DNA of 64,000 bases from Eledone cirrhosa. Its lineage: Eukaryota. A program made the translations under genes and the position numbers. The stretch is from contig OZ024743.1 of the NCBI GenBank assembly GCA_964016885.1, positions 46,066,001 through 46,130,000 of the forward strand. Direction: 5' to 3'. Positions 32,301 to 37,238 of this stretch are shown in pieces (the first letter of the stretch is position 1; each line of letters starts with the position of its first letter). A model generated the notes under the pieces. That model had not been told where the DNA came from and did no database searches. It saw only the letters and a list, made by a program, of their open reading frames with translations.

Positions 32301-33922
32301 GATGATAGGACTGGGGTCCCTATCATTAAATTACCCAAGACACCTCCAACGAGATATACCTTGGAGGAGGCCAGCTAAACCTGCAAATGTGTGAGCTGCC
32401 ACACACACACACTCACACTCACACACACACACACAACGTTACCAATCATTTTTTCGGTGTTAATAAATAAAAGTACCTGGTGAAGTGCGGTGGTTTGGCA
32501 GGAACTGCGACCGGCAAATAGCATCGGCAATGAAAAATATCTATGGAAAAAGTTTCATGATCAGATCTGGTCTTTCGTGGTCTTTCTATAAGCATCAGTA
32601 TATTGCAACATTTGCTCTTGAAATTCCCTTATCAAGTGAAATTGATAAGATCATTCCATGTTGTGCGGATTTCTACTGTGTAGGCTTTGATTAAAGACTA
32701 TAACACGTTTCAACTATTCATCCATGTACCATAGACGCATGATGGAATCTTAAGGGTGCCGTGGAGACATACAATGTGTCTTAGATATTTCAACTTGATG
32801 GAGTCCATCTTTTCCTAGTTCAAAACACAGTCGATTTCTTCTACAGAAAGAATGAGGAGAGAATGGTTGATGTAGGGGAGACATCTACTCGATACTAGAT
32901 TGATTCTGTATCGGTCTCGAAACGGTGAAAAGAAAAGTTGGCTTCGCTGGGATTTGAACCTTGAGAACATATAGACAGATTGAATACCGCATATTGTTAT
33001 GTTTAATTGAATTGCTGTATGAAGACTTTTTATTTCGTAAAAATGTTTCAAGCGTTTTAGAGCGCTTAAAGTGAAGTGGTATTTATTGGGACCTACAACG
33101 AGCATGGCTCGTGGCTGCTATCACTAGTGTTAACTATTATAATTAAGCAATTAAACAATGTTCTATCTTTTATACAAATTATAACTTGAATTGCTAAACT
33201 GAAATTATGTAATGCCATCTACATACTTTTTGCTGTAAATATTTTGATTCGTCGAAGACAATAAAGATAAAAACATCATAAACACAATAAAGATAAAAAC
33301 ATCATAAACATTGTATTTATGTTCATTCGACTTGTATACGATATATATATATATGTGTGTGTGTGTGTGTGTGTGTGTGTGTGTGTGTGTGTGTGTGTGT
33401 GTGTGTGTGTGTGTGTGTGTGTGTGTGTGTGTGTGTGTGTGTGTGTGTGTGGAGAGAGAGAGAGAAAGAAAGAGAGAGAGCTATATATATATTTATCGAA
33501 CAAGTGATACATGTTATATTATTGAGATAATACATAACTAAGGCAAATTCTACTGATGCATGAACCATATAATTTTCTGATAAAAGAGTGTGAATAGATA
33601 ATTAAAGAAAGTTTTCATTAAAATAACTCTCTAAAAAAATCTTCTCTCTTTTCTTGTAGGCAAAACAAAAGTAACTCAACATCATACTCAATAAAATATA
33701 GGTGACGTATATATTACATACAAGTATTCATTAGAGAACTATACATAACATAATTTACTGTTACAAATAACTAAATTATGAAGTCACGCAAGTAATACGC
33801 TGTTGGCGTGGCAGTAATTTACAAACCTCACCATTTATCTAATTAATTTTCTCTCTCTCTCTCTCTCTCTCTCTCTCTCTCTCTCTCTCTCTCCTCTCTC
33901 TCTCTCTATATATATATATATA

Positions 33923-33990
33923 CCGACGTGAGGTATATGATTTTTAATGCAATGAAATATCTATGATCGTCGGCAAATCACTGATGAGGG
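33923..33990 (+). ncRNA. Candidate non-circularly permuted hammerhead ribozyme (family A, copy 1)
   Basis: CCGACG..AGGUA-UA-UGAUUU..GAAA-UAUCU..CGUCGG..AAAUCA-CUGAUGA. Stems I and III pair in exact core register. Confidence 0.65.
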
Positions 33991-34437
33991 ACTTATTTTA
34001 TTACATGTTATCCATGTGCTACCAGCAGTATTTTTCTCCCCATTTTATCACATATATTTACCTAAACTGCGATTCTGTTTTTTTCTCTCTCTCTCTCTCT
34101 TACTGCTCCCTCATTCTCTCTGTTTCTCCTACTTTCTTTCGCCCCCTCTGTCATGTCAGTTAACTCTTCCTCACACTTCCACTCACTCACTCACTGTTTC
34201 TCCTCTCCTCACTTCACCCCGTTCGCGACGAAAGCAATTTCTCTCTTTCTCACATTGCATTCGTTCGCGAAGGGTCTTTTTTCTAAGCGCTCATATATTC
34301 ACCTAGCTTATGCTAACAGAATAACTATGAAGCTTGTTTCCTTCTTTCTACGATTAGCTCTACTCTTTGTTGTTTTCCTGTCTCACTCGCTTTACGCGTT
34401 TTAATTGTCCTAATAACTTAATTTAGTTATTATTGCA

Positions 34438-34505
34438 CCGACGTGAGGTATATGATTTTTAATGCAATGAAATATCTATGATCGTCGGCAAATCACTGAT
34501 GAGGG
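34438..34505 (+). ncRNA. Candidate permuted hammerhead (family A, copy 2)
   Basis: Identical to 33923-33990. Confidence 0.65.
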
Positions 34506-35201
34506 ACTTATTTTATTACATGTTATCCATGTGCTACCAGCAGTATTTTTCTCCCCATTTTATCACACATATATATATATATATATATATATATATATAT
34601 ATATATATATATATATATATATATATATATATATATATATATATATATATATATATATATATATATACATGTGCGTTTTATTTTCATAATCACGCATGAT
34701 GGTAAACTAGCCTGCTTTTAAATTCCCTTTTTGACATATTAATCAGTGAGAATCTGGCTATCGTGTTGAGCTCTGCTGAGGATCGTATTCCAACCGTGAC
34801 CATCTCCACTGAAAGTTTACGTGAAATAGTCTTTTTCAAGACTATACAGAGCATTTGTAGTTGTCCCAAATTGAAGGATGAGTATTTTAAACTTTATTTT
34901 ATCATGAGTTAAGGCTCTATTGATTTTTAAATGGATTTCACTAAATTCTGTTGGATAAATCTATATCCTGATTCTTTTTGAATTGAGTATGAATTATTTT
35001 TCCCACATCTTCCGTTAACTATTTTCCCATTTTGACGCTATAGTCACTTATATATTATGGAATACTGTTGGCTTCTTGCTACAATACTTTCTATACCTTT
35101 CATTTATATATATATATATATATATATATATATATATATATATATAAGAATAAACGTGCTGCGTGGTTTCTAATGGGTTACATATGAATAAAGTTAGTCC
35201 T

Positions 35202-35266
35202 TCATCAGTGATCTTCCAACCATCATTGGTATTTCATCGCTTTAAAGACCATATACCTCCGGTTGG
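35202..35266 (-). ncRNA. Candidate permuted hammerhead (family B, inverted copy)
   Basis: Reverse complement of the 35592-35656 motif. Confidence 0.65.
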
Positions 35267-35591
35267 TGCAAGCAACGGCTAATATAAGTCGTTGGGATAC
35301 GTAAATAAAGGGGACACGAGAGTGTAAAAAAACGAAGATGGTGAAGCAACGAAAGGGGAGGAAGAAAGAGTCAAGTCCCAAATTTCCATGAATATAAGTT
35401 CGGTGAAATCGTGAACGAGAGAGAATAAAGACCATCAAACCTGGTTGGAATGTGAGCAAGGAAGGAATTCCGTACAGGTCTAACGGGAGGTTTCTTCCTC
35501 ACTTTTCGTTGCTTCACCATCTTTGTTTGTTTACACTCTCGTGTCCCCTTTATTTACGTGTCCCAACGACTTTTTTTAGCCGTTGCTCGCA

Positions 35592-35656
35592 CCAACCGGA
35601 GGTATATGGTCTTTAAAGCGATGAAATACCAATGATGGTTGGAAGATCACTGATGA
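35592..35656 (+). ncRNA. Candidate permuted hammerhead (family B)
   Basis: CCAACC..GGUA-UA-UGGUCUU..GAAA-UACC..GGUUGG-AAGAUCA-CUGAUGA. Confidence 0.65.
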
Positions 35657-36228
35657 AGGACTAACTTTATTCATATGTAACCCATTAGCAACCACGCAGC
35701 ACGTTTATTCTCATATTTACACATATTTTTTCCCCCGCTGTGACCCGTCTATTTCGTTCTTACTGCTTCCTCTTTCTCTGTATCTTTACTCTCTCTAACA
35801 GTCACTCTCTCTGTTAGCCTCTTCCTCACCCTTCACTCACTCACTCTCTGTTACTACCTCTCCTCCTCCTCCTTCTTCCCCTTTGACCTGTGCGTAATTC
35901 TTTTCTTTCGCACCCTTGGTCAGGCAGGTTCGCTTTTTTTCTCTCTCTCGTCTACGATTTCACAGAACTTATGTTCACCGAATTCACAGACTAGATTCCT
36001 TCTTCCTCCCGTTAGACCTATACGGAATTCCTTCCTTGCTCACATTCCAACCAGGTTTGATGGTCTTTATTCTCTCTCGTTCACGATTTCACGGAACTTA
36101 TATTCATGGAAATTTGGGACTTGACTCTTTCTTCCTCACTTTTCGTTGCTTCACCATCTTTGTTTGTTTACACTCTCGTGTCCCCTTTATTTACGTGTCC
36201 AAACGACTTTTTTTAGCCGTTGCTCGCA

Positions 36229-36293
36229 CCAACCGGAGGTATATGGTCTTTAAAGCAATGAAATACCAATGATGGTTGGAAGATCACTGATGA
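36229..36293 (+). ncRNA. Candidate permuted hammerhead (family B, tandem copy)
   Basis: Same motif with one substitution in an unpaired linker (gcgat to gcaat). Confidence 0.65.
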
Positions 36294-37238
36294 AGGACTA
36301 ACTTTATTCATATATATATATTATTTTTTAATATTTTTTAATATTTTGTAATATTTTTTATTTTTAATATTAAATGTTTTAGTTTCTGTTTATTTATTTA
36401 TTTTCTTGTCTCTGATATTTTTATTTTTATTTTTATTAATATATTGAAATCTGTTCTCTATTTCTGCTTGATTGACAATCATGTAGAATAAAGACAAGAA
36501 TAGTATTGTTAAAATTAATATAGACTCTATATATATGTGTATATATACACACATATATGTATACTTGAATTTTTATAGCACAATGAGTATGTTTTCGTGT
36601 GAATTGGGAGTTTGTTTATAATTATGATATAAACATATGAATTTTTAAAAACTAGACATAAGATCATTACTTTTCACACATTATAGATACATGTCTCATT
36701 CATGAATACTGGTATTTACATTATAATGCCTGTTTTATACGAACTAATATTTTCTACGGGATAAAACATAGTGGTTTTAAATTCTGCATCGTTTATGTCT
36801 GGTTATGTTTCATTTTCTCTTTTTCATTTTCTCTTTTTTCTCTCTATATAACGGCTATTTTCTCTCTTAACTACATACATCTCTCTTTACATTAATACTA
36901 GAGCTAAATAAATAAATAAATAAATAAATAAATGTATCAACCGATACTCAACTTCCTAGTTTCTCTATCTATCTCTATCTATCTCTTTCTTTTTTCCTCT
37001 CTCTATATATATTTCTCTCTGTTTCTTTACATGAAGTTCTTCTCTTTATCTATCTTTCTATATCTCTCTATTTAGTCACATGCATTTCTTCTTTTTCTTC
37101 GTTTCTCTTTCTTTCTCTCTTTATCTCTTTCTTTTTACAACTGTCCACAATATTTTTTACTGCCAAATCAACCTCCCAAATGCAAGGTGATTGAAAGGTA
37201 TGTCGTATCTATTTATTTATAAGACTGTTTATATTGTA

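Follow-up and report, generated by a model that had tools for sequence, protein, structure and literature searches.

A 64,000-nt stretch of contig OZ024743.1 from Eledone cirrhosa (the window, in whose positions coordinates are given below unless another sequence is named) raises a question about how small repeats spread. Near its middle, at 33922-36312, two families of non-coding repeats, A and B, recur in units of 515 and 637 nt, carry the core letters of a hammerhead ribozyme in permuted order, and end in (TA)n; are such repeats copied from self-cut circular RNAs, and if so by whose enzyme? An earlier note on this DNA had taken them for non-autonomous, circle-producing elements that are built like retrozymes and mobilized by the reverse transcriptase (RT) of a Penelope-like element (PLE). 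Both families proved to be young members of an abundant non-coding repeat superfamily. Our overall reading, towards which we lean with some reserve, is that these young repeats carry a rewired hammerhead, that their unit-length RNAs are probably circular, and that a borrowed PLE enzyme pastes them into (TA)n.

The layout described in the earlier note was borne out in its main points: direct repeats one unit apart in both families, an inverted copy upstream of B, (TA)n on both sides, and no credible open reading frame (ORF). The cores of family A, at 33981 and 34496, are spaced by 515 nt, and 34437-34575 repeats 33922-34060 at 98.6% identity; those of family B, at 35650 and 36287, are spaced by 637 nt. 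The inverted arm of B (35132-35490 by BLAST; minus-strand core at 35208) is 94.5-95.8% identical to the direct arm. Each locus holds ~1.3 units, not two full ones, and only ~6 repeats make up the short (TA)n run to the right of B. Within 33900-36330 no ATG ORF exceeds 83 aa, and the one of that length is of low complexity. The A and B units have GC contents of 39% and 43% and are ~71% similar over the first 290 nt of the unit. No hammerhead was matched in this region by Rfam at E values up to 10, nor in A or B by a type I hammerhead descriptor. The first A copy begins at 33922/3 and lacks the upstream strand of stem II; by descriptor its stem II has 2 bp versus 6 bp in the second copy, and its model score is 94 bits versus 136-150 for other copies. 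The direct arm of B contains two complete predicted ribozymes.

A genome-wide pattern for all three core blocks gave 9,539 matches versus 9 for a reversed control, and one for the 3′ blocks gave 18,350 versus 29, so that the motif is not a product of chance. The first 100 matches of the 3′-block pattern formed 79 clusters, which served as a sample of insertions: 63 have a single motif, 11 a tandem pair, 6 a back-to-back pair and 1 a convergent pair (classes overlap). The copies are dispersed in their thousands, and most sampled insertions have a single motif. Among the first 30 three-block matches, the sequence meets a microsatellite no more than 71 nt from A9 in 27 cases (26 TA, 1 CA) and runs on into the next unit in the remaining three.

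The ends of the insertions were informative. Across 40 family B loci, 29 of which were chosen with a query favouring the long end, 3′ ends fall at two fixed positions ~40 nt apart, one per arm of inverted pairs: 11-17 nt after A9 in 27 arms (mode 16) and 49-68 nt after it in 28 arms (mode 55-56). Finished arms on both strands were present in 9 of 29 B loci, and all nine combine one long with one short end, a rule that the B locus in the window also obeys; A-like copies have the long end in 23 of 24 cases. The 5′ ends of 42 B arms are scattered, with 15 arms exceeding one unit and 11 containing two or more complete ribozymes. PLE insertions are described as being 5′-truncated and arranged in partial tandems, with an inverted copy that is also truncated, a tail of 30-40 bp on one end, and a preference for (TA)n (PMC8557442). 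The present repeats show 5′ truncation with partial tandems, an upstream inverted and 5′-truncated copy, a one-ended tail and a (TA)n target, insertion into which masks any target duplication. By these five tested marks A and B are dispersed, non-autonomous PLE-type insertions, as the tandem-plus-inverted layout had suggested in the earlier note, and PLE machinery very probably mobilizes them. Having no ORF that combines RT and GIY-YIG domains, the copies are not themselves autonomous PLEs.

Family A also forms a long array on C1, from ~81,546,700 to 81,696,900, which was sampled along its ~150 kb and comprises ~290 units; its 3′ end is tailed and lies in (TA)n, and its 5′ end is truncated and bears a short inverted piece. 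Its units differ by 2.2% on average (83 units) and show repeated unit-length runs (higher-order repeats), from which it follows that DNA-level duplication took part as well. A B copy elsewhere (L180:449-2831) has a 129-bp internal segment grown to ~17 tandem repeats.

What marks these elements out is their ribozyme motif, in which the blocks run in the order cut site, GAAA, CUGANGA. Stems I and III are in register with this core in 28 of 30 genome matches versus 3 of 120 metagenome matches of a similar pattern, which were treated as chance. For the strand that precedes GAAA, the partner lies upstream of the cut site (94.8-97.7% paired); the register published for stem II of type SGC hammerheads, directly after CUGANGA, gave 38.6% and was rejected, and the descriptor found a stem II of 0-2 bp downstream versus 3-6 bp upstream. 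A six-helix model (P4, P5, II, P0, III and I) of 22 rows had 95.7% of cells paired and double changes at 13 of 33 pairs. With 24 rows, which include further subfamilies, 95.4% of 790 cells were paired and 19 of 33 pairs had changes on both sides, with at least one double change in each of the six helices; none of 500 shuffles scored as high, and slid controls gave 27-48%. The rows were hand-picked to represent subfamilies, and the structure was drawn from the same rows. Position 17 is A or C in all 24. Together, these results support a covarying permuted hammerhead fold in A and B. A box C/D snoRNA (small nucleolar RNA) reading was discarded, its Rfam matches (E 1.9-8.3) being far under gathering scores.

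P0 joins stem III via a three-nucleotide bulge and tandem G-A pairs. In a kink-turn, two helices flank a three-nucleotide bulge, after which come tandem G-A and A-G pairs. In our alignment the G and A occur in 24 of 24 rows on the bulged strand and in 23 of 24 each on the other, which matches the kink-turn (PMC4316175) as a sequence pattern; a loop of this kind would bend the arm back to stem I. P4 is made by the letters after CUGANGA pairing with those before P5, so that a junction with two extra helices replaces the link from A9 to stem II, and the body of the unit becomes the loop of P4. Read 5′ to 3′, the predicted wiring is P4 strand, P5 hairpin, stem-II strand, P0, stem III, cut site, stem I, stem II and GAAA, followed by stem III, the kink-turn-like loop, P0, stem I, CUGANGA and the 3′ strand of P4.

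The closest published relatives are types SGC and CSG (PMC10085705), which share with A and B the non-circular order of cut site, GAAA and CUGANGA, the core letters, and a short linker between stems I and II. A and B have the block order of SGC with stems I and III in register, but not its unbroken block C; because their stem-II partner lies upstream, the ribozyme is neither type I nor the published type SGC, and it has P0, P4, P5 and the kink-turn-like loop in addition. SGC was reported only from metatranscriptomes and CSG from metagenomes, whereas A and B reside in an animal genome. The truncated first A copy could presumably cut only by borrowing the downstream stem-II strand of the next unit, an arrangement equivalent to SGC wiring with the unit body as insert. 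A sequence-distant family with an 804-bp tandem (L373:2800-3750) was seen by eye to have the same block order and helices P4, P5, II, P0, III and I, with a GUC cut site and a bulge in place of the kink-turn pattern; model R1 did not detect it. We consider the ribozyme likely to be active.

A probable source of the fold lies in Naiads, PLEs that share with A and B the pattern of tandem copy, inverted copy, tail and (TA)n (PMC8557442). The available portion of that report describes canonical hammerheads as absent from Naiads and flags unexplained ‘HHR_core’ and ‘HHR_half_core’ cases. In a partial survey of its File S5 by eye, we could place the split fold at a minimum of 9 of 54 Naiad consensus 3′ ends (two from octopus, three from coral and four from elsewhere), and type CSG, previously known from two metagenome sequences, at a minimum of six further ends (five nematode-section records and the one before Naiad_Lpol). 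Read in the same way, the Naiad versions keep a G-C pair at the base of stem II; the split fold could not be fitted to Naiad_Esco, and no core was present at the ends of Naiad_Omin or of the record before Naiad_Amil. Our literature search, which covered few subscription papers and left out the supplements of PMC10085705, found no description of a split fold or permuted hammerhead in Naiads; PMC13725137, in the portion available, only cites the SGC paper.

A and B are without an ORF; the Naiads found in this genome, whose proteins resemble octopus ones by eye, are decayed, their 145 matches being mostly partial or interrupted by stops. The motif was present in none of 30 Naiad-remnant loci found with a single Naiad lineage as query, by which other Naiad families may be missed, and a short pattern taken from an octopus Naiad end had no match. 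The A/B fold was likely inherited from a Naiad 3′ end. More tentatively, and with somewhat less than even confidence, we propose that Naiads across animal phyla have as their missing ribozyme a seventh hammerhead topology, whose core is opened between A9 and stem II and which a kink-turn bends, and that here this topology has survived its Naiad host as ~18,000 non-coding copies, which self-cut into 500-800-nt circles and are written into (TA)n by the enzyme of another PLE clade.

The element at 53.5 kb, which the earlier note had named as a Naiad and as an example of a mobilizing PLE, finds no support in that role. Its GIY-YIG domain (a weak Pfam match, E 0.004, below cut-off) is not N-terminal to the RT but C-terminal, behind a CxCx5C linker, which is the mark of the Hydra clade; its RT motifs resemble, by eye, those of Hydra-1_Obim. 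Nor does it share ends with A and B, having its own type I hammerhead and a 68-nt tail. The Hydra family to which it belongs is active, with many 97-99% copies and 758-aa frames. Type I hammerheads of the element lie at 59414 and, inverted, at 50286, and the two ends of the family are 68 nt apart (16 loci: 4 short, 6 long; plus the window pair). Within 50226-59542 the 3′ region of the Hydra element includes 2-5 kb of degenerate (TA)/(TG) microsatellite between the ORF and the type I hammerhead, in the inverted arm too.

A second PLE family (L114-L143), which we take to be Neptune-like from a motif and its CX2-5CxxC linker rather than from a tree, is very active: its 1,217-aa frames are intact, and its copies include 4.1-kb tandems as well as inverted pairs. 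A minimal type I hammerhead is present in 30 of 30 copies, and the ends are 45 nt apart. Assuming that the enzyme sets tail length, the ~40-nt tail of B fits the Neptune-like value (45 nt) better than that of Hydra (68 nt), and we take this active family, and not the 53.5-kb Hydra element, to be the likeliest present mobilizer, at about even odds. Both families end in type I hammerheads and so were rejected as partners with the same ends. PLE ORFs adjoining copies at L111-L113 were rejected as an autonomous partner, being separate insertions with their own ends in a shared (TA)n, and at L014, where a B copy is joined to a Neptune-like 3′ end, fusion was indistinguishable from a later insertion. 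ORF-bearing PLEs sharing the A/B termini, for which the earlier note had recommended a search, were sought in 90 loci and found in 0 of 30 Neptune-like, 0 of 30 Hydra and 0 of 30 Naiad-remnant loci.

As to mechanism, tandem transcripts would be cut to unit length by the predicted ribozyme that each 515- or 637-nt unit carries, and the resulting RNAs would probably be joined as circles; the enzyme would then nick (TA)n, prime inside the RNA at AT-rich spots and copy back across the cut junction. The position of the 3′ ends downstream of the predicted cut implies internal priming, so that copying must cross the cut junction, and this needs either a circle or an uncut tandem transcript. By analogy with retrozymes the circle is favoured as template over the uncut transcript and, if the ribozyme is active, we hold it to be the somewhat better supposition. 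Circle-templated, more-than-unit reverse transcription has been proposed for the minimal type I hammerheads of PLE pseudo-LTRs (long terminal repeats; PMC4209133), which like those of A and B are located near the 3′ end of a PLE-type unit. The published ones need dimers because stem III is minimal, whereas A and B have a stem III of 5-6 pairs plus P0, with which a single copy is predicted to be able to fold alone.

Sequence differences among copies bear on the template. Tandem copies within a locus differ by 3.2% (5,702 sites) versus 4.1% between loci, and share 5.1 minority variants per kb versus 2.4 between loci, among them five variants found in no other of 40 loci. The second B ribozyme in the window has two locus-private substitutions, one in P5 and one in stem II. 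The likeness within arms fits repeated copying of one template, which either a circle or a homogeneous source array could have supplied. In minimum free energy folding, which fails to recover the pseudoknots, the predicted monomers do better than shuffled sequences (z −3.6 and −4.2). In a sample of 100 matches minus 7, 12 insertions are truncated no more than 75 nt from GAAA, and three of them have 5′ ends within 3 nt of the predicted cut (~1.1 expected if uniform; not significant); at L383 both arms begin exactly there. Clustering of 5′ ends at the cut is suggestive at most. Read set X4 was discarded as RNA evidence because it covers an EF-Tu-family gene and its flanks evenly, as DNA would.

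The same PLE mobilization could operate on an active ribozyme with no circle, if uncut or partly cut tandem transcripts of source arrays were the template and the ribozyme only trimmed the 5′ end. Long source arrays do exist, as the ~150-kb one demonstrates; a homogeneous tandem source would also yield more-than-unit arms and shared variants; and the truncations near the cut, including both arms of L383, are what linear cut RNA would give. That excess is not significant, however, the 5′ ends of the 42 B arms are scattered, and coral, mussel and axolotl retrozymes accumulate as circles (PMC7229834), so this account appears rather unlikely to us. We think it improbable that the fold is real but has lost its cutting and is kept as a structure recognized by a PLE protein at the 3′ region of the RNA. 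Such a role would suit the missing A9-10.1 link, the weak stem-II base in B and the fixing of 3′ ends just behind the fold, but the core letters and the non-G at position 17 are kept while the helices covary, mismatches at the stem-II base occur in natural hammerheads (PMC7229834; PMC8557442 File S2), and the Naiad versions keep their G-C pair there. A purely satellite nature, in which DNA duplication and unequal crossover did the spreading and RNA took no part, is very improbable. The repeated unit-length runs in the large array are a sign of DNA-level duplication, and satellite processes may account for the growth of that array; for the dispersed copies this reading is largely refuted by their scattered 5′ and fixed 3′ ends, long and short arms and (TA)n targets, which match PLE insertion, and the ~150-kb array itself has PLE-type ends.

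Several observations weigh against the reading that we prefer, of a rewired hammerhead yielding circles that a PLE enzyme copies. The alignment rows share ancestry and defined the model, so that shuffle counts are not probabilities. The pair adjoining GAAA is Watson-Crick in A but a mismatch in the main register of B; in B, stem II could also form in an alternative register, in competition with P5. The six permutations set out in PMC10085705 presuppose the A9-10.1 link, and a hammerhead lacking it is not among them. The first A copy in the window is incomplete. Opposite arms of one locus differ by 3.9%, against 4.1% between loci, and share 2.5 variants per kb. The RNA strand has no A-to-G excess (in B, 3.6 versus 6.3 per 1000 for T-to-C), and an RNA-editing footprint was therefore rejected. 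Predicted circles are only 41-45% paired, whereas those of retrozymes are highly self-paired, and only one of nine predicted Xenopus retrozyme dimers cleaved in vitro (10.64898/2026.07.22.740005). To these are added the predominance of single-motif insertions and the lack of an ORF-bearing PLE with A/B ends in the loci searched.

How far, then, do A and B resemble retrozymes? Metazoan non-LTR retrozymes (PMC7229834; 10.64898/2026.07.22.740005) likewise consist of non-coding tandem units with one hammerhead each and GC below 50%, range from monomers up to long arrays, and co-exist with PLEs; the A and B unit sizes fall within the 51-972 bp range of the latter source. Retrozymes have neither a primer-binding site (PBS) nor a polypurine tract (PPT), and their target duplications, where present, exceed 4 bp. 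Two complete ribozymes follow one another at a retrozyme locus, an arrangement present in the direct B arm of the window and in 11 of 42 B arms but not at the A locus, with its truncated first copy. Retrozyme circles shown by experiment measure 170-400 nt and the A and B units are longer; the retrozyme hammerhead is type I and that of A and B is not. PLE insertion marks could be read directly from the ends of A and B. The proposed retrozyme-like build accordingly stands as regards tandem units and absence of an ORF, but not as regards hammerhead type, and most sampled insertions have one motif. We did not file A and B as retrozymes because their hammerhead is not type I and their circles and cleavage are predictions.

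Features of the A and B loci and adjoining sequence in the window.
Feature	Positions	Strand	Remarks
Family A insertion, ~1.3 units of the 515-nt repeat	33922..34568	+	5′-truncated; long 3′ end into (TA)n
First A ribozyme copy, truncated	33923..33992	+	Lacks upstream P4, P5 and stem-II strands; predicted cut after 33937; descriptor and model
Predicted 515-nt A monomer, cut to cut	33938..34452	+	Inferred from hammerhead geometry
Complete predicted six-helix A hammerhead	34407..34507	+	Cut after 34452
Helices of A hammerhead	P4 34407-10/34504-07; P5 hairpin 34411-32; stem II 34433-36/34463-66	+	
Other parts of A hammerhead	GAAA 34469; CUGAUGA 34496	+	Also P0 and kink-turn-like loop, stem III, stem I
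(TA)49 target microsatellite	34569..34667		
Family C, separate repeat	34668..35104	+	Canonical type I hammerhead
(TA)21 target microsatellite	35105..35146		
Family B inverted arm	35146..35490	-	5′-truncated; long 3′ end; complete predicted ribozyme 35298-35197, cut after 35252
Family B direct arm, ~1.3 units of the 637-nt repeat	35491..36312	+	Short 3′ end into (TA)n
First complete predicted B ribozyme	35560..35661	+	Cut after 35606
Predicted 637-nt B monomer, cut to cut	35607..36243	+	Inferred
Second predicted B ribozyme	36197..36298	+	Cut after 36243

Family C, between the two loci, is unrelated to A and B. Its type I hammerhead has CUGAGGA at 34776, GAAA at 34823 and a predicted cut after 34846; stem I has 6 bp, stem II 4 bp and stem III 8 bp, and loop II is long. 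A first look gave 3,568 candidates; copies are 96-98% alike, some lie 637 bp apart, and they end in (TA)n, making C likely a conventional retrozyme. The window also contains a retrozyme-like 558-bp tandem between (TA)n runs at 23930-24760 on the minus strand, with two type I hammerhead motifs (cores 24634 and 24076), and type I hammerhead-like matches, weak or palindromic, at 47829-47950, 31345 and 37245. ORFs of non-LTR retrotransposons (RT, endonuclease and zinc-binding pieces) occupy 382-3060, 5012-10355, 16825-21729 and 48777-49541.

As a class of element A and B are not new, since retrozymes and their link to PLEs are already known or proposed. New in print would be the ribozyme: reports of non-circular hammerheads have been confined to environmental sequence, the published scheme took the CUGANGA block to be unsplittable, and Naiads were reported to be without hammerheads. 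Should the fold cleave, an entire class present in animal genomes has escaped descriptor searches, and hammerheads would be near-universal in PLEs. The short, young, two-ended copies are, moreover, ready substrates for studying how PLE enzymes prime and how they make tandem, inverted and tailed insertions.

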